This document shows positions 9,395-45,634 of a stretch of DNA of 48,490 bases, piece by piece (the first letter of the stretch is position 1; the number at the start of each line of letters is the position of its first letter). This stretch comes from Lambdavirus PDP110P1. The notes under the pieces are model-generated. The model had not been told where the DNA came from. It searched no databases and saw nothing but the letters and a program-made list of their open reading frames with translations. The stretch is from sequence record OZ035751.1; one strand, 5' to 3'. The position numbers were made by a program, and so were the translations under genes.

Positions 9395-10876
9395 ATGGCA
9401 ATTTCGCTATCAAAAATCGCCCAGATGCTTCCCGGCGTACTGAAGGCGACAGGGACAGCTATTGATCTCAATGGCCTGTTCCTGACCGACAGCGCATACG
9501 CGCCGGTTGGTGCAGTACCCTCATTTTCCAGTGCGGATGAGGTAAAGGCGTACTTCGGCAGCGCGTCGATTGAGTACACCGCCGCGGTGCTGTATTTCGC
9601 CGCATTCACCGGTAAAACACAGATGCCTGGCAAGCTGTATTTTAGCCGATTCAATACCGCAGCAGTGGCGGCATTCCTTCGTTCCGGATCGCACGCAGCG
9701 ACCACGCTGGCACAGCTCAAGTTGCTTTCTGGTACGTTGACTCTGACAGTTGACGGCACGGAGGAGACTTCTGCGGCTATCAACCTCAGCGGCGCCACCA
9801 GTTTTGATAATGCGGCAGAGCTGATTGAAACCGGCATTGGCTCCTCGGTTGTAGTGACCTGGGATAGCGTGCTGAAGAAATTCATCATCACCTCTGCCAC
9901 CACGGGCGTGGATAGCACCATTACCTTTGCCGATGAAGGTACGCTTGCTACGGGTCTGAAACTGACCGAAGCGACCGGCGCGGTGATCTCTCAGGGTGCG
10001 GCGCCGGCAGTGGTTGACGATATCTTTACTGCCATTCTGGCCAAAGAGCAGGACTGGGTAACATTCTCCACGACGTTCGCTGTCACCAAAGACCAGGCTA
10101 ATGCGTTTGCGCTCTGGACAAACAGCCAGAACCACCGCTTTGCCTATGTCCCATGGGACGCATCAGGAACGGCAATCGTGGCGGGCAGCTCGAATGCACT
10201 GGTGTACGACATCATCAACACCTACGCCTATAACGACACCTGCCCGGTGTATGGTTACCCGAACCACGCAGCAAACGCGATGGGGTTTGTGGCTGCGCTG
10301 AACTTCACGCAGGCCAATGGTCGCTGTTCGCTGAATGGTCGTCAGGTGTCCGGCCTGCTGCCGATGATCAGTAACGATACTGATTACGAGGCGGCTAAGG
10401 CCAACGGCTATAACTTCTACGGCAACTATGCCTCGAATGCGGTCGAAACCAACCAGTGGGCGCCCGGCTCTATTACCGGTGATTACGCTTGGCTTGACGC
10501 CTGGGCGGGTCAGGTATGGGTAAATGCTCAGCTTCAGGCGGCTCTTGTTGCGCTGTTCCAGCAGGCGAGCAATCTGCCCTTCGCAGCAGCCGGGAAAGCT
10601 CGTATTGAGTCGTGCATGAAGCCGACCATTGAGCAATTCAGGGCGTGGGGTGGCATGACGGCAGGAACCGATCTTGACCAGTCGCAGATCGACCAGATTA
10701 ACGCCATCGCTGGTGTCGATGTTACGGATTCGCTTATGGCTGAAGGTTATTACGTCTACATCGGCCCGTTCACCGCGGCAATGCGCGCCGCGCGTACCAA
10801 GCCAACGGTTTACTTCTGGTACACCGACGGCGGGATCATCCAGGGTATCACCGTTAACAGCACGGAGGTGCAGTAA
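9395..10876 (+). CDS. tail sheath protein (putative)
   Basis: 493 aa followed by a 147-aa tube-like gene, chaperone and tape measure: the gene order of a contractile tail. Confidence 0.5.
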   Translation: MAISLSKIAQMLPGVLKATGTAIDLNGLFLTDSAYAPVGAVPSFSSADEVKAYFGSASIEYTAAVLYFAAFTGKTQMPGKLYFSRFNTAAVAAFLRSGSHAATTLAQLKLLSGTLTLTVDGTEETSAAINLSGATSFDNAAELIETGIGSSVVVTWDSVLKKFIITSATTGVDSTITFADEGTLATGLKLTEATGAVISQGAAPAVVDDIFTAILAKEQDWVTFSTTFAVTKDQANAFALWTNSQNHRFAYVPWDASGTAIVAGSSNALVYDIINTYAYNDTCPVYGYPNHAANAMGFVAALNFTQANGRCSLNGRQVSGLLPMISNDTDYEAAKANGYNFYGNYASNAVETNQWAPGSITGDYAWLDAWAGQVWVNAQLQAALVALFQQASNLPFAAAGKARIESCMKPTIEQFRAWGGMTAGTDLDQSQIDQINAIAGVDVTDSLMAEGYYVYIGPFTAAMRAARTKPTVYFWYTDGGIIQGITVNSTEVQ

Positions 10877-11319
10877 TGGCCGGTCAAAATATTACGTCGG
10901 CAGACGCCATCATTGAGCTGGTCATTGCTGAGCTCTACCCATCCGGGTTTAACCTGGAACAGTTCGAAGCGCAAAACATCTTCGAAATGGGTGATACCGA
11001 TATGGCAGAGTACCAGCGTACTGCTGACGGTAAACTGCTGGGTGGTTTTGTTTATGGTGATCTGCCGTGGACTTTCCATCTGGCGGCATCATCCCCGTCG
11101 ATTAAGTACATCGACAACTGGCAAACCACGCAGATGACCACGCGGTCTGTGCTGCGTGTCAATGGGACTGTGATCCTGCCGTCGCTGGGTAAAAAGTACA
11201 TCATGACTAACGGTATCCTGCAGCGCGCACGCCGCATGCCGTCTGCCGGCCGTGTTCTTCAGCCGGTAACTGGACTCATCCAGTGGGAAACTGTCACCCC
11301 GGCAGACTACTCAGCATAA
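10876..11319 (+). CDS. tail tube protein (putative)
   Basis: 147 aa directly after sheath-like gene. Confidence 0.5.
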   Translation: MAGQNITSADAIIELVIAELYPSGFNLEQFEAQNIFEMGDTDMAEYQRTADGKLLGGFVYGDLPWTFHLAASSPSIKYIDNWQTTQMTTRSVLRVNGTVILPSLGKKYIMTNGILQRARRMPSAGRVLQPVTGLIQWETVTPADYSA

Positions 11320-11353
11320 AAAAAATCAGCCCGGCTAAGTCCGGGCTTTTTTA
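11318..11353 (+). terminator. rho-independent terminator
   Basis: hairpin AGCCCGG-CTAAGT-CCGGGCT followed by TTTTTTAT, directly after the tube gene stop. Confidence 0.7.
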
Positions 11354-11501
11354 TACCCGCAATACCCCGCGCTTCACACGCGCACATCACAACACAGAAC
11401 CTTTCAGGATGACCCTTGAGGATACCGGTTTGGCTATCGGTGCCTTTCTGTGGGCCGGATTCCTGTGTGACAAGGTTCATCACTAAAAGGTAATTACCGA
11501 G

Positions 11502-12257
11502 ATGTCTAATATCATCCCCATGAATTACGATGACCGTTCATTTCCTTTTACTGCTGACTGCTGGTTCAATGCCACGGTTGCCGCAAAGCATCACGGCAAG
11601 CTACCAAAGGACTGGCTAAAGACTGAGGCGACAAAAATTTATATCGCCGAATTGGCTGAGGAGCTTGGAATTGCTGGCTCCGGCGTAAAAGAGGATTTTT
11701 CTCCCCTTTTAGTCAGAGTGGAGAAAGGGCGAAACGGCGGGACCTGGCTTCATCCGGAGTTGGCGGTGGAGTTCGCCCGCTGGTTGTCAGTAAAATTCGC
11801 CCGAGCCTGTGACCGACACATTAAAAATCTGCTACTGAGTAAAAACTTCCAGCTCACTGAAGATCAAATTGTCGGCCTGATGGTCTGTCAGCAACCCACC
11901 TCTTGGGAAAAACGATTTAAAGACCCGTTCTACCAGGCGCTGTCGAAAATGTCCGGCCTTCCTTACTTTGGTCATGTCGGTGGTTGCCCGGCGCTGTTCG
12001 GTCAGATCACCGCTCGATGGGTGTACGGTGTCGCACTTCCCGATTATGTCTATCAGGCAGCAAAACAAGCAGCGGGCGACAGCAGAGAGAAGATTCACCA
12101 GCACCTCAAGCCTGATGCGCTGGATAAGGTCGAGCAGCAATTGATCGCCGTTACCAATATCGCGAATTGCAGCATTGACCAGAAGGACTTCGAGGCCCGT
12201 TGCATGGCCGCGTTTCCCGTTAAGGGTCAGATGAAACTGCTGTATGCGGCGGCGTGA
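11502..12257 (+). CDS. KilA-N domain protein (moron)
   Basis: 251 aa; N-terminal KilA-N-like region (…GTWLHPELAVEFARWL…); sits between two terminators inside the tail module. Confidence 0.6.
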   Translation: MSNIIPMNYDDRSFPFTADCWFNATVAAKHHGKLPKDWLKTEATKIYIAELAEELGIAGSGVKEDFSPLLVRVEKGRNGGTWLHPELAVEFARWLSVKFARACDRHIKNLLLSKNFQLTEDQIVGLMVCQQPTSWEKRFKDPFYQALSKMSGLPYFGHVGGCPALFGQITARWVYGVALPDYVYQAAKQAAGDSREKIHQHLKPDALDKVEQQLIAVTNIANCSIDQKDFEARCMAAFPVKGQMKLLYAAA

Positions 12258-12514
12258 CCATGAATAACCGAATCGTTGAGTGTGCCTCCAGAGCGGGGCG
12301 CGACTTCTCAGAGTTCATGACTGGCGAGAAGAACATGATGGAGGCGCTGCGTTCTGCTGAAGAGTTCACCGAGCAGTTACGCATTCACGGCTGCGTTAAT
12401 CACCATTTCGTCAATTTCATGATGATGAAAGCGATCATGAAGGTATTTGACGACTTGCGCCGAGAGGAGTTGCGGGAAGAACGACGACGCAAACGTGAAG
12501 AGAAGAAGAAATGA
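12254..12514 (+). CDS. hypothetical protein with basic/acidic C-terminal tail
   Basis: 86-aa ORF translationally coupled to the KilA-N gene; C-terminus EELREERRRKREEKKK. Confidence 0.45.
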   Translation: MTMNNRIVECASRAGRDFSEFMTGEKNMMEALRSAEEFTEQLRIHGCVNHHFVNFMMMKAIMKVFDDLRREELREERRRKREEKKK

Positions 12515-12537
12515 GCCCACCACGGTGGGCTTTTATC
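12513..12537 (+). terminator. rho-independent terminator
   Basis: GCCCAC-CACG-GTGGGC followed by TTTTAT. Confidence 0.65.
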
Positions 12538-12589
12538 CTCCCCCGCATCCCTGCTAATCTGTCGAAAACAAACCAACGGGGATAGGGAT

Positions 12590-12970
12590 ATGAAAAAGGT
12601 TCTATTGGTTGCAGCAATAGCGGTTGTACTTGCCGGTTGTGCTTCTGGCGGCAATAAGTCGATTGAGCAAGAAACGCAGATTGGCGTTCAGAGTAAAATA
12701 ATCAAAGGAAAGACGACGAAGCAAGAAGTTAAGGCTGCATATGGAGATCCAGCTGGGGTATCAATCTCCAGTGATGGGAAAGAACAGTGGCACTATGTTT
12801 TCACAAACACACAGATCAGCGGGAAAGCATTTATTCCCATCTATGGACTATTTGATAACGGCGCTACTACCAACATGAAGCAGCTTATAATCGTGTTTAA
12901 GGGCGATATTGTAGATAATTACTTATTTAATAATTCAAATACAGAAGTTAAATCAGGCCTCCTAAACTAA
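12590..12970 (+). CDS. outer-membrane lipoprotein, BamE/SmpA-OmlA-like (moron)
   Basis: signal peptide with lipobox LAG-C; core IKGKTTKQEVKAAYGDPAGVSISSDGKEQWHYVF resembles the BamE/OmlA fold motif; visibly AT-rich; own terminator. Confidence 0.6.
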   Translation: MKKVLLVAAIAVVLAGCASGGNKSIEQETQIGVQSKIIKGKTTKQEVKAAYGDPAGVSISSDGKEQWHYVFTNTQISGKAFIPIYGLFDNGATTNMKQLIIVFKGDIVDNYLFNNSNTEVKSGLLN

Positions 12971-12988
12971 CCAACTTCCATGTTATAG

Positions 12989-13014
12989 ACCTCGCTCCGG
13001 CGGGGTTTTTTATT
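12989..13014 (+). terminator. rho-independent terminator
   Basis: CCTCGC-TCCG-GCGGGG followed by TTTTTTAT. Confidence 0.7.
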
Positions 13015-13041
13015 GCCAGATAACTCATTCAGGAAACAAAA

Positions 13042-13518
13042 ATGGCTCGTAAAAGCATCGTATTCACGGTTGAAGCAGATAACCGTGACAAGGGTAAGCA
13101 GTTCAAAATCACCGAAATGCCGGCGAGAAAGGCCGAAGAGTGGGCGATCCGCCTGGCGTGTGCCGTGATTGGCGCCGGCGTTACCGTTCCCGACAATATG
13201 ATGATGGCCATCGGTGCTGCGGTGGCGCCGGCCCCAGCCGAGGATAACGCAGAAGCTCGCGAGCTGTACGAAAGCGTGATGGCCAGCGGTATGGCCGGAC
13301 TCGCTCAGTGGGGTATCACTTCACTGGCTAAAGTTCCGTTCGCACAGTCAAAGCCTCTGCTTGATGAGTTGCTTGGCTGCGTGAAATTCCTCGGCGGTAA
13401 TGGTATCGAAACAGCGCTTGTTGACGAAGGTCAGATCGAAGAAATCAGCACCTGGTCGCGCCTGAAAATCGAAGCCTTCAAACTCCATATCGCTTTTGTA
13501 GCAGCCACCGCAAGTTAG
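13042..13518 (+). CDS. tail assembly chaperone (putative)
   Basis: 158 aa immediately upstream of tape measure gene; RBS AGGAAA; a -1 frame stays open to the tape measure start. Confidence 0.45.
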   Translation: MARKSIVFTVEADNRDKGKQFKITEMPARKAEEWAIRLACAVIGAGVTVPDNMMMAIGAAVAPAPAEDNAEARELYESVMASGMAGLAQWGITSLAKVPFAQSKPLLDELLGCVKFLGGNGIETALVDEGQIEEISTWSRLKIEAFKLHIAFVAATAS

Positions 13519-16831: not shown

Positions 16832-17697
16832 GTTACAAGGAGAGAGAGCTTACCGTATCGTTCACGCTGGCTAACGGTACGTTTGACGGCGGAATTGGTA
16901 ATACGCTGACGGTTAAAGGCTTCAAGTGTGAGGCTGCTATATCTGCCTTTGGCGGCGCTACAGGCACAATGATGGAGCTAAGCCTGTGGGGCCTGTCACT
17001 GGAGAACATGGCCAAGCTGACGACCAACGCGCAAAAAATAATCGCCGCCGAGCAAAATGCTATCGTCGTTTATGCTGGCGACACCCGTGTTTTTTCCGGG
17101 TCAATAACATCAGCCAGGATTAACCTGAACCAGATGCCGGATGCGCCGATTGAGATAACCGCGGCGGCCGCCGGCAGGGAGCGCCTGATCCCCTGTGAGC
17201 CCACATCCATTCGCGGCGATGCGGATGTGGCTGATATGATTCGCGCTCTTGCCTTTAAAGTTGGCCTGAAATTCATCAATGTCGACGTCAAAAGCACCGA
17301 GCGCAACCCGGTGTACAAAGGCAATGCGATAAAGCAGATCATTGAAATAGCAGCTGCGCATAAAATAACGGTAAATATTGATTTTGGCACCGTCACTATT
17401 TACACCGGGAAGAAACCCTCTGACTCTGTCGTTCCATATGTTTCTCCATCAACAGGGCTTATTGGGTATCCGATTTTTTATGACATGGGGATTAACTTTC
17501 GCTGCATTTACTCTCCATCTCTGAAACTGAATACCAAAATCATCCTTGAGACTGACCTGCCGCACGCAAGCGGGGAATGGATTATTCAGGCAGGAACCAC
17601 TCATTATCTTTCCTGTAAAGTTCCCGGTGGTCTGTGGGAAACGTTCGTCGTGGCCGCGCCTGGGTATCTTGTAAAAGGTGATGAAAATGCTAACTAA
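16828..17697 (+). CDS. putative baseplate hub protein
   Basis: 289-aa ORF, overlapping starts and stops with neighbours. Confidence 0.4.
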   Translation: MSYKERELTVSFTLANGTFDGGIGNTLTVKGFKCEAAISAFGGATGTMMELSLWGLSLENMAKLTTNAQKIIAAEQNAIVVYAGDTRVFSGSITSARINLNQMPDAPIEITAAAAGRERLIPCEPTSIRGDADVADMIRALAFKVGLKFINVDVKSTERNPVYKGNAIKQIIEIAAAHKITVNIDFGTVTIYTGKKPSDSVVPYVSPSTGLIGYPIFYDMGINFRCIYSPSLKLNTKIILETDLPHASGEWIIQAGTTHYLSCKVPGGLWETFVVAAPGYLVKGDENAN

Positions 17698-18277
17698 CCA
17701 GACCCCTGAGAGCGTGTCATCACAGGGTAACGCCATATTATCGCTGCTACATTCAGCGCTGAAAGGAATGACGTTTGTTGATATTGTTCTGGTTAGGGAG
17801 GTTGAAGGCGATGTGTTGACCGTTCTCCCCCTGGTTAATGATGTAGACGTTTCAGGCCGGGCCATTGCCAATCAGGACGTTTACCAGATCCCATATCTCA
17901 GACTTCAGGCGGGAAACAGCGCGGTAAAAATGGAGCCAAGGCCTGGAGACATTGGTCTGGTTGTTATCTGCGACAAGGACACCACGAACGTTAGGGAAAC
18001 CAGATCAGAGGGGCCCGCACCAACTCAGCGCCGCCACTCGTATTCCGATGCGATGTACATAACCGCAATAGCCAGCATGAATGGGGAACCTACTGAATTT
18101 GCTGAATTTACTGGAAGTGGCATAAATATAAAAAGCCCGGGCGTGGTTAACATCAATGGCTTGAAAGTCCACTCAGATGGCAAACTTGAGCTTGTCGATG
18201 GCTCTATCGTTGATGGGCATGACCATGGCGGGGTAATATCAGGGGGAAGCCGAACCGATCCTCTGGCGCCGGCATAA
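17678..18277 (+). CDS. putative baseplate spike/assembly protein
   Basis: 199-aa ORF in baseplate cluster. Confidence 0.35.
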   Translation: MMKMLTNQTPESVSSQGNAILSLLHSALKGMTFVDIVLVREVEGDVLTVLPLVNDVDVSGRAIANQDVYQIPYLRLQAGNSAVKMEPRPGDIGLVVICDKDTTNVRETRSEGPAPTQRRHSYSDAMYITAIASMNGEPTEFAEFTGSGINIKSPGVVNINGLKVHSDGKLELVDGSIVDGHDHGGVISGGSRTDPLAPA

Positions 18278-18288
18278 AGGGAATAAAA

Positions 18289-18669
18289 ATGTCGCTCTTA
18301 GTCATAGCTGCTCTGCTTGGATTAATTCCTGCCTTTATCGCTCAAAGTAAGGGGAGGTCATTTGGCGCGTGGTGGTTGTATGGATTCCTTCTTTTCATCG
18401 TCGCCATTATTCATGTTCTTTTCGTTACGCCACACAATACAGCAGGCACCGTTGCCAGTGACTCAATCGGCCCCATGCGAGATTGCCCATATTGTGCAGA
18501 GCCAGTGAAGTATCAGGCCTCAAAATGCAAGCATTGTGGTAGTGAGATAGAACCTATACCGATCCCTGAGCCAAAATATAATGGAACTCAGATAGCCTGG
18601 AGCAGAATTGCAATTTTGATTGGAGGGATTGTGTTGCTGGCTATCATTTCAGGCATCATAGGCAAATAA
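18289..18669 (+). CDS. membrane protein with zinc-ribbon (moron)
   Basis: 126 aa; two N-terminal and one C-terminal hydrophobic helices flanking CPYC…CKHC; followed by a strong terminator. Confidence 0.55.
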   Translation: MSLLVIAALLGLIPAFIAQSKGRSFGAWWLYGFLLFIVAIIHVLFVTPHNTAGTVASDSIGPMRDCPYCAEPVKYQASKCKHCGSEIEPIPIPEPKYNGTQIAWSRIAILIGGIVLLAIISGIIGK

Positions 18670-18693: not shown

Positions 18694-18719
18694 AACCTCG
18701 CTTCGGCGGGGTTTTTTTA
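18694..18719 (+). terminator. rho-independent terminator
   Basis: CCTCGC-TTCG-GCGGGG followed by TTTTTTTAT; near-identical to the terminator at 12989-13014. Confidence 0.7.
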
Positions 18720-18731
18720 TGGGCGAAATCC

Positions 18732-19088
18732 ATGAAAACAATATCTCTCAAACTTGACCCAGATACCTGGGATCTTGTCCTTGATGAGCTGGGTAATATC
18801 GCCACGGTTGAAAACCCCTACGCCTGCGCTCAGGACGTAGCGACGGCATGCCTGGCTATACGCGGCGAGTGCATTTACGAAAAAGACACCGGCGTTAATT
18901 ACAAAGAGCTGCTTAACGTTAAGGCCAGCACTGGCGCCATGGCGGCCGCGCTTCAGGTTGAAGCGTTGCGGATGAGCTATATCGCGCGAGCTGAGCCGAC
19001 GCTGATTAACAACAGCGATACGCGCCGCACTACCGGCGTTATTGCGATCGTGGATACCAACGGCCTGGATTCCAGCGTCACCCTGTGA
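18732..19088 (+). CDS. putative baseplate protein (gp25/W-like position)
   Basis: 118-aa ORF preceding the J-like baseplate gene. Confidence 0.35.
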   Translation: MKTISLKLDPDTWDLVLDELGNIATVENPYACAQDVATACLAIRGECIYEKDTGVNYKELLNVKASTGAMAAALQVEALRMSYIARAEPTLINNSDTRRTTGVIAIVDTNGLDSSVTL

Positions 19089-27159: not shown

Positions 27160-27420
27160 ACCTTGCGCTAATGCTCTGTTACAGGTCACTAATACCATCT
27201 AAGTGGTTGATTCATAGTGACTGGATATGTTGTGTTTTGTAGTATTATGCAGTCTATTATTTAGACTAAATCTTTCATAACATATTGATATTTACAGTGT
27301 TTTCTGTTTATTGTTCAGCTTTTTTATACTAAGTTGGCATTATAAAAAAGCATTGCTTATCAATTTGTTGCAACGAACAGGTCACTATCAGTCAAAATAA
27401 AATCATTATTTGATTTCAAT
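27160..27420. other. attP: attP (lambda-type; core 27318-27332)
   Basis: lambda core GCTTTTTTATACTAA with flanking lambda arm sequence (…ACAGGTCACTA…), adjacent to int. Confidence 0.85.
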
Positions 27421-28476
27421 TTTGTCCCACTCCCTGCCTCTGTCATCACGATACTGTGATGCCATGGTGTCCGACTTATGCCCGAGAAGATGTTGAGCAA
27501 ATTTATCGCTTATCTGCTTCTCATAGAGTCTTGCAGACAAACTGCGCAACTCGTGAAAGGTTGGCGGATCCCCTTCGAAGGAGAGACCTGATGCTTTTCG
27601 TGCGCGCATAAAATACCTTGATACTGTGCCGGATGAAAGCGGTTCACGACGAGTAGATGCAATTATGGTTTCTCCGCCAAGAATCTTTTTGCATTTATCA
27701 AGTGTTTCCTTCATTGATATCCCGAGAGCATCAACATGCAATGTTGTTGGGATAGCAATTTTTACGCCTGTTTTGCTTTGCTCGACATAAAGATATCCAT
27801 CTACGATATCAGACCACTTCATTTCGCATAAATCACCAACTCGCTGCCCGGTAACAACAGCCAGTTCCATTGCAAGTCTAAGCCAACATGGTGATGATTC
27901 TGCTGCTTGATAAATTTTCAGGTATTCGTCAGCCGTAAGTCTTGATCTCCTTACCTCTGATTTTGCAGCGCGAGTGGCTGCGACCGGGTTTGTTGTTATA
28001 TGGCCTTCAGCTATAGCCTCTCGGAATGCATCGCTCAGTGTTGATCTGATTAACTTGGCTGATGCCGCCTTGCCCTCGTCTATGTATCCATTGAGCATTG
28101 CCGCAATTTCTTTTGTGGTGATGTCTTCAAGTGGAGCATCAGGCAGACCCCTCCTTATTGCTTTAATTTTGCTCATGTAATTTATGAGTGTCTTCTGCTT
28201 GATTCCTCTGCTGGCCAGGATTTTTTCGTAGCGATCAAGCCATGAATGTAACGTAACGGAATTATCACTGTTGATTCTCGCTGTCAGAGGCTTGTGTTTG
28301 TGTCCTGAAAATAACTCAATGTTGGCCTGTATAGCTTCAGTGATTGCGATTCGCCTGTCTCGGCCTAATCCAAACTCTTTACCCGTCCTTGGGTCCCTGT
28401 AGCAGTAATATCCATTGTTTCTTATATAAAGGTTAGGTGGTAAATCCCGGCGCTCATGACTTCGCCTTCTTCCCAT
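27406..28476 (-). CDS. int: integrase (lambda Int, tyrosine recombinase)
   Basis: 356-aa protein MGRRRSHERRDLPPNLYIRNNGYYCYRDPRTGKEF…, recognised as lambda Int. Confidence 0.95.
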   Translation of the reverse strand: MGRRRSHERRDLPPNLYIRNNGYYCYRDPRTGKEFGLGRDRRIAITEAIQANIELFSGHKHKPLTARINSDNSVTLHSWLDRYEKILASRGIKQKTLINYMSKIKAIRRGLPDAPLEDITTKEIAAMLNGYIDEGKAASAKLIRSTLSDAFREAIAEGHITTNPVAATRAAKSEVRRSRLTADEYLKIYQAAESSPCWLRLAMELAVVTGQRVGDLCEMKWSDIVDGYLYVEQSKTGVKIAIPTTLHVDALGISMKETLDKCKKILGGETIIASTRREPLSSGTVSRYFMRARKASGLSFEGDPPTFHELRSLSARLYEKQISDKFAQHLLGHKSDTMASQYRDDRGREWDKIEIK

Positions 28477-29381: not shown

Positions 29382-29736
29382 GATGACCTCCTTTGAAGTT
29401 TTAGTTAGCAATCACCAGTTAGTGGCTGGTGATCGGGTGTCAACTAGAGCCTTCAAAGATGCTCCGGGCATATTCCCCTTGCGGGTATTGTATTACGCCT
29501 CTCCACCCGACCTTTGTACGGATGTGACTATGCCAAATTGCAGGCATAAAAAAGCCGCAAAGCTATCGGGTGCGGATGACCGCTTTGAAGTTCTAGTGCG
29601 GTCAGTATGCGATAGCTCTGGCGGATTTGTCAAATCATGTGGTCTTTATCTTGCTGTAAGCCGCGCCATTCGGGATTTTCCCCAAATTTGGGGGAAACTA
29701 TCTGCGAAGTATTCACCTTTGACGGCAAGTTTCAGG

Positions 29737-43969: not shown

Positions 43970-44618
43970 TGGCAGCAAATACCGAAATATTTGGGTAGTT
44001 GGCGATCTGCACGGATGCTACACGAAACTGATGAAAAAACTGGAGACGATAGGATTCGACACCAAAAAAGACCTGCTTATCTCGGTTGGCGATTTGGTTG
44101 ATCGCGGTACAGAGAACGTCGAATGCCTGGAATTAATCACATTCCCCTTTTTCAGAGCTGTACGTGGAAACCATGAGCAAATGATGATTGATGGCTTATC
44201 AGAGCGTGGAAACGTCAATCACTGGCTGTTTAATGGCGGTGGCTGGTTCTTTAATCTCGATTACGACAAAGAAATTCTGGCTAAAGCTCTTGCCCATAAA
44301 GCAGATGAACTTCCGTTAATCATTGAACTGGTGAGTAAAGGTAAAAAATATGTCATCTGCCACGCCGATTATCCTTGTGACGAATACGAATTTGGAAAGC
44401 CAGTTGATTATCAGCAGGTAATCTGGAACCGCGAACGAATCAGCAACTCACAAGACGGGGTCGTGAAAGAAATCAAAGGCGCGGACACGTTCATCTTTGG
44501 TCATACGCCAGCAGTGAAACCACTCAAATTTGCCAACCAGATGTATATCGATACTGGGGCAGTGTTCTGCGGAAATCTCACATTGATTCAGGTACAGGGA
44601 GAAGGCGCATGGGAATAA
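43947..44618 (+). CDS. ninI: Ser/Thr protein phosphatase (NinI)
   Basis: 223 aa from MRYYEKIDG; calcineurin-like motifs GDLHG, GDLVDRG, GNHE. Confidence 0.85.
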
Positions 44619-45127
44619 GAGAATTAAACCTCACCAAAGAGCAGCACGAGTGGCTGAATGGCTGGCTTGAACTGTGGGGGGCATGGGTTTATTCAGGTCG
44701 TCTGGAAAAGCGCATGAGCAGCGTAATAGCTAAGTTCATGGAGAGCGTAGAGCCGGGAAGAGTTATGACAAGGCCAATGTGTAATGATGATGATGGAATG
44801 TTGATTTCTCAGGTCGTCGATTCCGTCATGTACATTGACAAGAAAGCCTTTGGCATCCTCCTCAGCTACTACGCTCATGGTTCATCTAAGCGAGCAATTG
44901 CATCCTACTATCACGCGACTGCAAAGCCACGCAAGATGTGTGGACGTGGTGGCGAGGGATGGAGAAAACCTTCACTGGCAACCTGTAGAAACGAAATTGA
45001 CGACATCCTGAAAGCGTCGTTATTTGTTTTGTACCAACCAATGCAAAATGCTTTCAAAATGCGTAAACGTGTTGAGAAAGTTAAGCATGTTGCTGTTAAA
45101 AGCCTTGACATGCAATTAGCCATTTAG
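44609..45127 (+). CDS. late antiterminator Q-like protein (non-lambda type)
   Basis: 172 aa, unlike lambda Q; sits between ninI and the lysis genes; Cys-rich; a strong promoter lies in its 3' end followed by an early terminator. Confidence 0.5.
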
Positions 45128-45134
45128 CCATAAT
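45105..45134 (+). promoter_or_regulatory. late promoter pR'-like
   Basis: TTGACA-N18-CATAAT overlapping the end of the Q-like gene. Confidence 0.6.
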
Positions 45135-45146
45135 TAGAAGGTAAGC

Positions 45147-45190
45147 TGCCGTTAGTGACTCTTAAGTTGCAACGGTGGCTTTTTTATTTG
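45147..45190 (+). terminator. early late-operon terminator (tR'-like)
   Basis: hairpin GCCGTT…AACGGTGGC followed by TTTTTTATTT about 10-50 nt downstream of the predicted start. Confidence 0.5.
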
Positions 45191-45262
45191 CACAACAGGT
45201 AAGAGCATTGAACCCGCAGACCTGCGGAATTGGTGAAAGGTGCCGCGCAGTTCTCTTATCGT

Positions 45263-45392
45263 TGTGGTGAAGCTCAATGGCGAGCTAGCAGATAGGCGAT
45301 AGTGAAAATACTAGTCATGTAGCTGACCGCCGCGCGTACTGCAATCGGCAGCGCACCGATGGAAGCCGGTTCGATTCCGGCCGCCACAACCC
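45263..45392 (+). other. tRNA-like element (split or degenerate)
   Basis: 5' acceptor TGTGGTG plus D-arm GCTC…GAGC (45263-45286) and T-arm GCCGG-TTCGATT-CCGGC plus 3' acceptor CGCCACA (45365-45388), separated by ~55 nt of non-canonical sequence. Confidence 0.3.
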
Positions 45393-45634
45393 AAACTGAG
45401 CCGTAGCCACTGGCTATCCTGAATTCATCAGTGATAGTTATGCTGCGGCCTTCTACACATGACCTTCGTGAAAGCGGGTAGCAAGATGCTGCGCTAACAA
45501 CCTCATGCCGTTTTGCCCGTGCATATCGGTCACGAACAAATCTGATTACTAAACACAGTAGCCTGGATTTGTTCTATCAGTAATCGACCTTATTCCTAAT
45601 TAAATAGAGCAAATCCCCTTATTGGGGCTAAGAC

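Follow-up and report, generated by a model that had tools for sequence, protein, structure and literature searches.

Gene content of the tail region and its two accessory slots

The window analyzed here is the whole stretch of 48,490 nucleotides of sequence record OZ035751.1 (Lambdavirus PDP110P1). It has the appearance of a complete temperate Klebsiella myovirus, with a tail region 96% identical to that of the Klebsiella phages ST15-VIM1phi2.1 and RCIP0114. Its tail genes include a sheath gene, a gene taken for the tail tube by its position, genes for a chaperone-like protein and for a tape-measure-like protein that has an SLT domain, and a set of baseplate genes. The early region, of lambdoid type, encodes an integrase, a CI-like repressor, NinG, a Q-like antiterminator, a holin and an endolysin. 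Accessory genes occupy two places between the tail genes. Slot 1 spans the interval from the tube gene to the chaperone-like gene and holds, in this order, a KilA-N/P63C gene, an 86-aa ORF with a hairpin of its own, and a lipoprotein gene. Slot 2 lies between a spike-like and a gpW-like gene, and its sole gene encodes a zinc-ribbon protein. The lipoprotein and zinc-ribbon genes are low in GC, 0.40–0.47 vs 0.52–0.58 in the flanking DNA. The features of the two slots are as follows.

10876..11319, + strand: positional tail tube gene, following the sheath gene (9395-10876); PHROG match only to "virion structural protein" (phrog_1964); left backbone flank of slot 1
11328..11355, + strand: tail-tube terminator AGCCCGG-CTAAGT-CCGGGCT, then T6AT; left border of slot 1
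11502..12514, + strand: older slot-1 cargo, a KilA-N/P63C antirepressor-like gene (11502-12257) and an 86-aa ORF (12254-12514)
12514..12536, + strand: resident-type hairpin of slot 1, GCCCAC-CACG-GTGGGC (12515-12530), T4, AT; with the lipoprotein unit nested on its 3' side
12578..13017, + strand: transferred unit of 440 nt, 98.9% identical in phage RAH1 (Shine-Dalgarno site, lipoprotein gene, hairpin, T6, ATTGCC)
12590..12970, + strand: lipoprotein gene, 126 aa, lipobox LAGC, GC 0.40–0.44; weak BamE-like match; phrog_3135, function unknown
12990..13013, + strand: terminator copy 1, CCTCGC-TCCG-GCGGGG, T6, AT; closes the lipoprotein unit in slot 1
13042..13518, + strand: tail assembly chaperone-like gene (phrog_1932); right backbone flank of slot 1
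17678..18277, + strand: baseplate spike-like (gpV-like) gene, assigned from weak Pfam matches below cut-off and its baseplate neighbourhood; left flank of slot 2
18289..18669, + strand: zinc-ribbon protein gene, 126 aa, hydrophobic stretches at both ends; starts 12 nt past the spike stop codon
18696..18720, + strand: terminator copy 2, CCTCGC-TTCG-GCGGGG, T7, AT; resident right border of slot 2
18732..19088, + strand: gpW / sheath-initiator-like gene; right backbone flank of slot 2

Sequence and fold of the two hairpins

The original prediction had reported two near-identical terminators, one after each accessory gene. Both are present, within 1–2 nt of where it had placed them. The difference of one loop base that it described (TCCG vs TTCG) holds as well, and a further difference of one T in the run has to be added. 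In copy 1, stem arms at 12990-12995 and 13000-13005 enclose the loop at 12996-12999 and are followed by T6 (13006-13011) and AT; in copy 2, arms at 18696-18701 and 18706-18711 enclose the loop at 18702-18705 and are followed by T7 (18712-18718) and AT. Copy 1 lies 19 nt from the stop codon of its gene and copy 2 lies 26 nt from its own, 11 nt before the gpW-like start codon. When the window was searched for the pattern with up to two mismatches, these were the sole sites, and none appeared in 100 shuffles. Random shuffles are, however, the wrong null for such a pair; the proper one is the phage terminator pool, in which the allele is very common. An alignment of the flanks, which had been suggested as a way to find shared boundary sequences, gave none around the two copies beyond the repeat of ~28 nt (shared element 24–28 nt).

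Both hairpins have a 6-bp stem with five G-C pairs and one U·G pair, a 4-nt loop of the UNCG type, and a run of six or seven T's. RNA folding of the hairpin with its U-tract gave -14.8 kcal/mol (z -2.6) for copy 1 and -17.3 kcal/mol (z -4.1) for copy 2. We aligned 21 variants from equivalent positions, pooling two hairpin families; in this pooled alignment 97.6% of the cells were paired, two-sided changes occurred in five of the six pairs, and none of 500 shuffles scored as high. The covariation supports selection for the stem. Thus a GC-rich stem-loop, an adjoining T tract, a position 3' of a gene and compensatory stem changes, the marks of an intrinsic terminator, were found for both copies. 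A terminator scan reported copy 1 and missed copy 2, probably because an A5/U5 extension of the stem consumes the T-run of the latter; the miss would then be an artefact of the scan rule. No Rfam family matched either hairpin when the whole window was searched at the gathering threshold.

Copy 2 is a fixture of slot 2

Relatives of slot 2 were collected through the gpW-like protein, the hairpin not being a selection criterion, and the 80 viral contigs gave 79 usable loci. The slot ranged from 454 to 5,279 nt with 39 content types, and none of the 79 loci was empty. Whatever the cargo, exactly one hairpin of the copy-2 family was present in 78 of the 79 loci. It stood directly before the gpW-like gene in 60/79, as CCTCGC-TYCG-GCGGGG-T7-ATGGGCGAAATCC, and before an extra ORF of 288 nt in 18/79. 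Identity between relatives breaks 0–3 nt 5' of the hairpin, and at least 12 unrelated 5' flanks adjoin it. Three loci have the doubly compensated allele CCCAGC-TTCG-GCTGGG. Since the hairpin occurs regardless of cargo, copy 2 belongs to the slot and did not arrive with the zinc-ribbon gene; being resident, it is uninformative on the origin of that gene. Between the spike stop codon and the zinc-ribbon gene of the window, neither a terminator nor a promoter-like site was found. The product of this gene, which the original prediction took for a membrane protein, has hydrophobic stretches at both ends of its translated sequence.

In the 79 relatives (L126-L205), the first slot-2 gene starts on or next to the spike stop codon and usually overlaps it (e.g., ..GTGATGA..); the corresponding stretch of the window is 18277-18300. 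The small proteins encoded by these first genes are of many unrelated kinds and have a signal peptide, a lipobox or transmembrane segments. They are candidates for superinfection exclusion, and their genes appear to be translationally coupled to the late operon. In ST15-VIM1phi2.1 (L001, 7866-8320) the slot measures 454 nt and has an annotated ORF of only 114 nt, although both the hairpin and the 3' part of the zinc-ribbon gene are intact; this gene may be disrupted or mis-annotated in that record.

Copy 1 belongs to a lipoprotein unit within slot 1

Slot 1 was sampled through the chaperone-like protein in 80 fetched viral contigs, again with no use of the hairpin as a criterion, and 84 loci were counted. 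The slot was empty (61 nt) in 8 of these, the tube terminator AGCCCGG-CTAAGY-CCGGGCT being directly followed by TTTTTTATTGCCAGAT. Where the slot is filled, TTTTTTAT comes after the tube terminator and precedes the cargo. Nearly every filled slot closes with GCCCAC-NNNN-GTGGGC, or in a few cases with a close variant of it, and TTTTTTATTGCCAGAT comes next; this arrangement was seen with at least six different cargo flanks and with 14 content types. The pair formed by the KilA-N/P63C gene and the 86-aa ORF also occurs in KP12 and other relatives. The lipoprotein unit with its CCTCGC hairpin, by comparison, was found in only two of the 84 loci, the window and contig L275 (the same contig as L136).

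Window positions 12578-13017 are 98.9% identical in the Klebsiella siphovirus vB_Kpn_RAH1, where the segment lies directly 5' of the tape-measure gene. The 5' end of the match is 12 nt ahead of the lipoprotein start codon, a distance with room only for a Shine-Dalgarno site, and its 3' end is the ATTGCC just past the T-run. Judged by this match, copy 1 demonstrably travelled with its lipoprotein gene between unrelated phages. In L275, the other carrier of the unit, slot 2 has the compensatory allele CCCAGC/GCTGGG. Since L275 lacks the copy-2 allele, and given the histories of the two slots, the near-identical pairing is peculiar to the window and is the product of two separate histories. The view that the hairpins close accessory-gene units at variable slots is upheld by these data, including the movement of copy 1 with its gene. 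The common donor of the original prediction is not supported, and neither is a joint acquisition, in view of the residence of copy 2 in 78 of 79 relatives and of the slot-2 allele of L275.

Searches of PADLOC and NCBIfam with four slot-1 and slot-2 proteins gave no meaningful matches, and the Pfam BamE and zinc-ribbon matches of the accessory proteins were below or near the cut-offs. A leader of ~150 nt precedes the KilA or Rha antirepressor-like genes (window 11348-11501; L001-L004, about 1850-2000). It has a small GC hairpin followed by a CTTTCAG-like motif, in a layout that is alike in unrelated cargo versions, and may be a regulatory leader or operator region. A second pair of look-alike terminators is present in the window, GCCCAC-CACG-GTGGGC at 12515-12530 (+) and GCCCAC-TTCG-GTGGGT at 35599-35582 (-), with the T-rich tails TTTTAT and TTTTTATTG, respectively. 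Recurring hairpin alleles thus appear to be normal in this phage.

The same hairpin precedes siphovirus tape-measure genes

We examined 80 enterobacterial siphovirus loci (L408-L487) at the tape-measure gene, sampled without the hairpin as a selection criterion. In all 80, a hairpin, T6 and ATTGCCYGGAGAAA lie immediately 5' of the start codon (the hairpin about 45 nt before it). Approximately 68 of the 80 hairpins have the exact CCTCGC/GCGGGG stem, and the rest are structure-preserving variants (GCGAGG, CCCCGC, CCCCGG/CCGGGG). The island of ~38 nt formed by hairpin, T-run and linker has a pairwise identity of 0.85–0.86, compared with 0.67 over the initial 120 nt of the tape-measure coding sequence and 0.32 in the unrelated DNA just 5' of the island. 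The 5' flank of the lipoprotein unit was found upstream of the hairpin in 7/80 loci. Among the matches listed for the exact hairpin, the lipoprotein family occurs in 15 nucleotide contexts and the zinc-ribbon family in 6, nearly all of them just 5' of enterobacterial siphovirus tape-measure genes; homologues of the zinc-ribbon gene precede tape-measure genes with the same hairpin in 5 other contexts.

The hairpin allele is common in phages and bacteria

The exact 22-mer of the hairpin was present in at least 120 viral contigs. The matches listed comprise 127 instances, which fall into 73 upstream clusters, 48 downstream clusters and 82 combinations of the two. Among these matches, 10 of 71 representative upstream ORFs were Q antiterminators lying 84–139 nt upstream, so that the hairpin takes the tR' position, and the other upstream ORFs belonged to many accessory families. 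In an annotated phage collection, 1,113 records matched a 31-nt query made of copy 1 (hairpin and ATTGCC). Two of the matching annotations are explicit. ES18 (AY736146) labels the identical 22-mer "terminator, putative", between gp20 ("possible moron") and the tape-measure gene, and HK633 labels a 93% copy "rho-independent terminator", after cor and before stf; both labels rest on sequence alone. The hairpin is therefore an already known and annotated kind of terminator, and its setting is usual for morons and late operons.

The hairpin is not confined to phages. In E. coli, the two genomes inspected have the exact 22-mer at the end of the rpmB-rpmG operon (in the rpmG-mutM intergenic region). 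A 33-nt query found a match over at least 80% of its length in every one of the 5,426 complete E. coli genomes, the median number of similar places per genome being five. In a species-level genome collection, the matches listed for the exact 22-mer include Xanthomonas, Pseudomonas, Acinetobacter, Vibrio, Flavobacteria, Bacteroides, Clostridia and Saccharibacteria, among others. The 22-mer thus arises or persists in wholly unrelated settings, and therefore identity alone is no evidence of a common source. The near identity of copies 1 and 2 is, as far as these sequences tell, a reflection of how common the allele is, not of a common donor. A database search, suggested as a way to see whether the terminators travel with diverse cargo, gave at least 73 upstream contexts and also generic positions (rpmG, tR', distant phyla). 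A ubiquitous generic terminator, which the original prediction had named as the outcome that would speak against it, is largely what E. coli rpmG, the tR' position after Q and the distant bacteria present. More generally, identical short terminators in one phage genome are no proof of shared ancestry or co-acquisition, since the allele seen here recurs in hundreds of contexts that have nothing to do with one another, among them a ribosomal-protein operon of the host.

Probable explanation: two ordinary terminators with separate histories

The window also has the following features, which bear on Q-dependent transcription.

44609-45127, + strand: Q-like antiterminator gene
45105-45134, + strand: promoter-like site TTGACA-18-CATAAT, near-consensus
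45143-45185, + strand: tR'-like hairpin with U6, directly after the promoter-like site

We consider it likely that the two hairpins are ordinary Rho-independent terminators of a common allele, which end accessory blocks within a Q-dependent late tail operon and have separate histories. Copy 2 stays at the spike/gpW-like slot while the cargo upstream of it is replaced, and copy 1 entered with the 440-nt gene-plus-terminator unit of the lipoprotein from a siphovirus chaperone/tape-measure slot. In a lysogen, the hairpins would halt transcripts that begin in or upstream of the accessory genes ahead of the tail genes. During lytic growth, Q-modified polymerase coming from the late promoter would pass through the terminators of the tail operon; the Q-like gene, the promoter-like site and the tR'-like hairpin would provide the means of this read-through. 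Termination by the hairpins and expression of the accessory genes in lysogens are likewise predicted from sequence features. The island counts against this explanation, as hairpin and linker have an identity of 0.85 vs 0.67 in the adjoining tape-measure coding sequence, which terminator function does not obviously require.

A scan for consensus sigma-70 sites before 12590 and 18289 found no promoter-like site; such a scan may miss weak or embedded promoters. Because of this result and the 12-nt 5' leads, a self-contained moron with its own promoter, as in the textbook case, is putative here. It may be as fitting to regard the lipoprotein and zinc-ribbon genes as passengers of the late operon as to call them classical morons. 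A by-product of the analysis is a map of two hypervariable accessory slots (tube/chaperone and spike/gpW-like) in a widespread group of Klebsiella prophages. Both have sharp borders and dozens of alternative cargos, many of them secreted, lipoprotein or membrane proteins, and are reasonable places to seek superinfection-exclusion or defence genes.

Comparison with known systems

As quoted in PMC3594210, the definition of a moron (Juhala et al. 2000) is extra DNA, between genes that adjoin each other in related phages, that differs in composition and has its own terminator and its own promoter, through which it can be expressed from a repressed prophage; the same source gives HK97 gene 15, between the tail assembly chaperone and tape-measure genes, as the first moron described. 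Extra DNA between adjacent genes was found at slot 1, with 8 of 84 loci empty and the lipoprotein unit in 2 of 84, and also at slot 2, where 0 of 79 loci were empty but 39 contents occurred. Both accessory genes differ in base composition and both are followed by a terminator, the one in slot 2 belonging to the slot and not to the gene. HK97 gene 15 and ES18 gp20 resemble the accessory genes of the window in being low-GC genes between tail genes with a Rho-independent terminator before the next gene. In ES18 the identical 22-mer is followed by ATTGCCCGGAGAAA before the tape-measure gene, and in HK97 gene 15 occupies the same chaperone/tape-measure slot, where T8ATGGGTGAAAATATG resembles the tail of copy 2. 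The HK97 stem, however, is ACCCGC/GCGGGT. Unlike HK97 and ES18, the phage of the window is a myovirus, its slots are tube/chaperone and spike/gpW-like, and no separate promoter was detected by the scan.

The lambdoid tR' terminator offers a second likeness, in that the exact hairpin lies 84–139 nt after a Q gene in 10 of 71 contexts among the matches listed, and a Q-like gene with a promoter-like site and a tR'-like hairpin is found in the window too. The tR'-like hairpin of the window differs in sequence, and read-through of the two tail-operon copies is a prediction. At the E. coli rpmBG terminator, the exact CCTCGCTCCGGCGGGGTTTTTT stands 24 nt after the rpmG stop codon; in contrast to the window, that operon is a core chromosomal one without mobile cargo, and the downstream tail is GTTATCTGC.

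PeSLs of T4-like phages are short conserved intergenic motifs with a terminator stem-loop, in which G-T pairs may occur, ahead of a Shine-Dalgarno site and a start codon (PMC2839356; PMC4122927). They flank variable accessory genes, and modular shuffling through them has been proposed or shown (Arbiol et al. 2010, PMC2839356; Comeau et al. 2014, PMC4122927). PeSLs contain a strong sigma-70 early promoter, occur in virulent phages, and have been shown to form mini-circles (PMC2839356; PMC4122927). Like PeSLs, the hairpins of the window recur at borders where accessory genes have been inserted, deleted or replaced. They differ in that no promoter-like hexamers lie at or next to them, with only 11–30 nt from the T-run to the next start codon, and in that the host phages are temperate here and virulent there.

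Alternative explanations

The conservation of the ~38-nt island invites the reading that it is more than a terminator. Its hairpin, T-run and ATTGCCYGGAGAAA or ATGGG would double as a portable patch of homology, within which phage recombinases cross over and so swap accessory units between the tail operons of unrelated phages. This reading is compatible with two ordinary terminators and adds a mechanism to them; we regard it as possible, though rather unlikely. In its favour, the island is far more conserved (0.85–0.86) than the tape-measure start (0.67) or the upstream sequence (0.32), and identity breaks 0–3 nt before the hairpin against at least 12 types of slot-2 flank and at least 73 upstream clusters. 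Identity in L003 and L004 also breaks just past T7ATGGG, the RAH1 homology ends within TTTTTTATTGCC, a 12-mer also present in the empty slot 1, and in 16 of the 48 independent downstream clusters among the matches listed the T-run leads into ATTGCC. The loop allele was the same for instances sharing cargo in 52–64% and for those sharing backbone in 51–63%, over a baseline of 35%; since the enrichment is similar for both, the test does not discriminate. Yet this is also what one would expect from purifying selection on the terminator and ribosome-binding site, acting along with selection against disruptive junctions. Identity needs no exchange, as the exact 22-mer arises in distant bacteria and in a core operon of the host as well, and a T-rich stretch behind the hairpin is common to terminators in general, including the annotated ones of ES18. 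The crossovers themselves are putative, read from sequence patterns. In its widest form, the island of hairpin, T-run and Shine-Dalgarno site would be a cassette border shared by enterobacterial temperate phages, a promoter-less counterpart of PeSLs at which short-homology recombination moves accessory genes between siphovirus and myovirus tail operons; this we think unlikely. The genes so moved may act in superinfection exclusion. A preferred crossover site, if real, would be a concrete mechanism for the movement of genes between unrelated tail operons.

The tight conservation of the spacing from hairpin through GGAG-linker to start codon before tape-measure genes, the Shine-Dalgarno site of the next gene within 11–30 nt of the hairpin, and an island conserved beyond the apparent need of termination could also mean that the hairpins are not primarily terminators, and serve as 3' mRNA stabilisers, processing sites or translational regulators of the next gene. 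We judge this very unlikely, as the layout is that of a canonical terminator (GC stem, tetraloop, U6–7), the same sequence ends the rpmBG operon and stands at the expected tR' position after Q genes, the Shine-Dalgarno sites of the window lie outside the hairpins, and no Rfam family was matched. Least probable, and in our estimate extremely so, is that both accessory units came from one source element or event, each with the terminator of that source. The two copies do differ by a single loop base, and the lipoprotein (15 contexts) and zinc-ribbon (6 contexts) families do recur before siphovirus tape-measure genes with the same hairpin. Against this, 78 of 79 relatives have the slot-2 hairpin, across 39 cargo contents, the lipoprotein unit is found in just 2 of 84 loci with a different slot-2 allele in its other carrier, the copies have no common flanking sequence, and the lipoprotein and zinc-ribbon genes occur together in no fetched locus.

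Known mobile repeats were considered as well. An integron attC site is an imperfect palindrome of ~57–141 nt that is recombined by a nearby integron integrase at attI. The element shared by the two copies has 24–28 nt, the sole integrase of the window (27406-28476) is of the prophage type and lies ~9 kb or more from the slots, and there is no attI-like array. An integron, REP or MITE-like element was therefore rejected, on size and on the lack of an associated recombinase.

Additional features of the window

The gap between the Q-like gene and the holin gene is non-coding over ~500 nt (45128-45634) and contains the promoter-like site, followed by the tR'-like hairpin. It also holds a tRNA-T-arm-like sequence, GGTTCGATTCCGG, at about 45358-45372; ARAGORN found no tRNA in this gap. 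The one Rfam match of the window is sRNA-Xcc1 (RF02221) at 29423-29512 (-), which is full length, with 65.4 bits against a gathering threshold of 53 and E = 1e-9. The match sits in the early-left region, near the integrase end.
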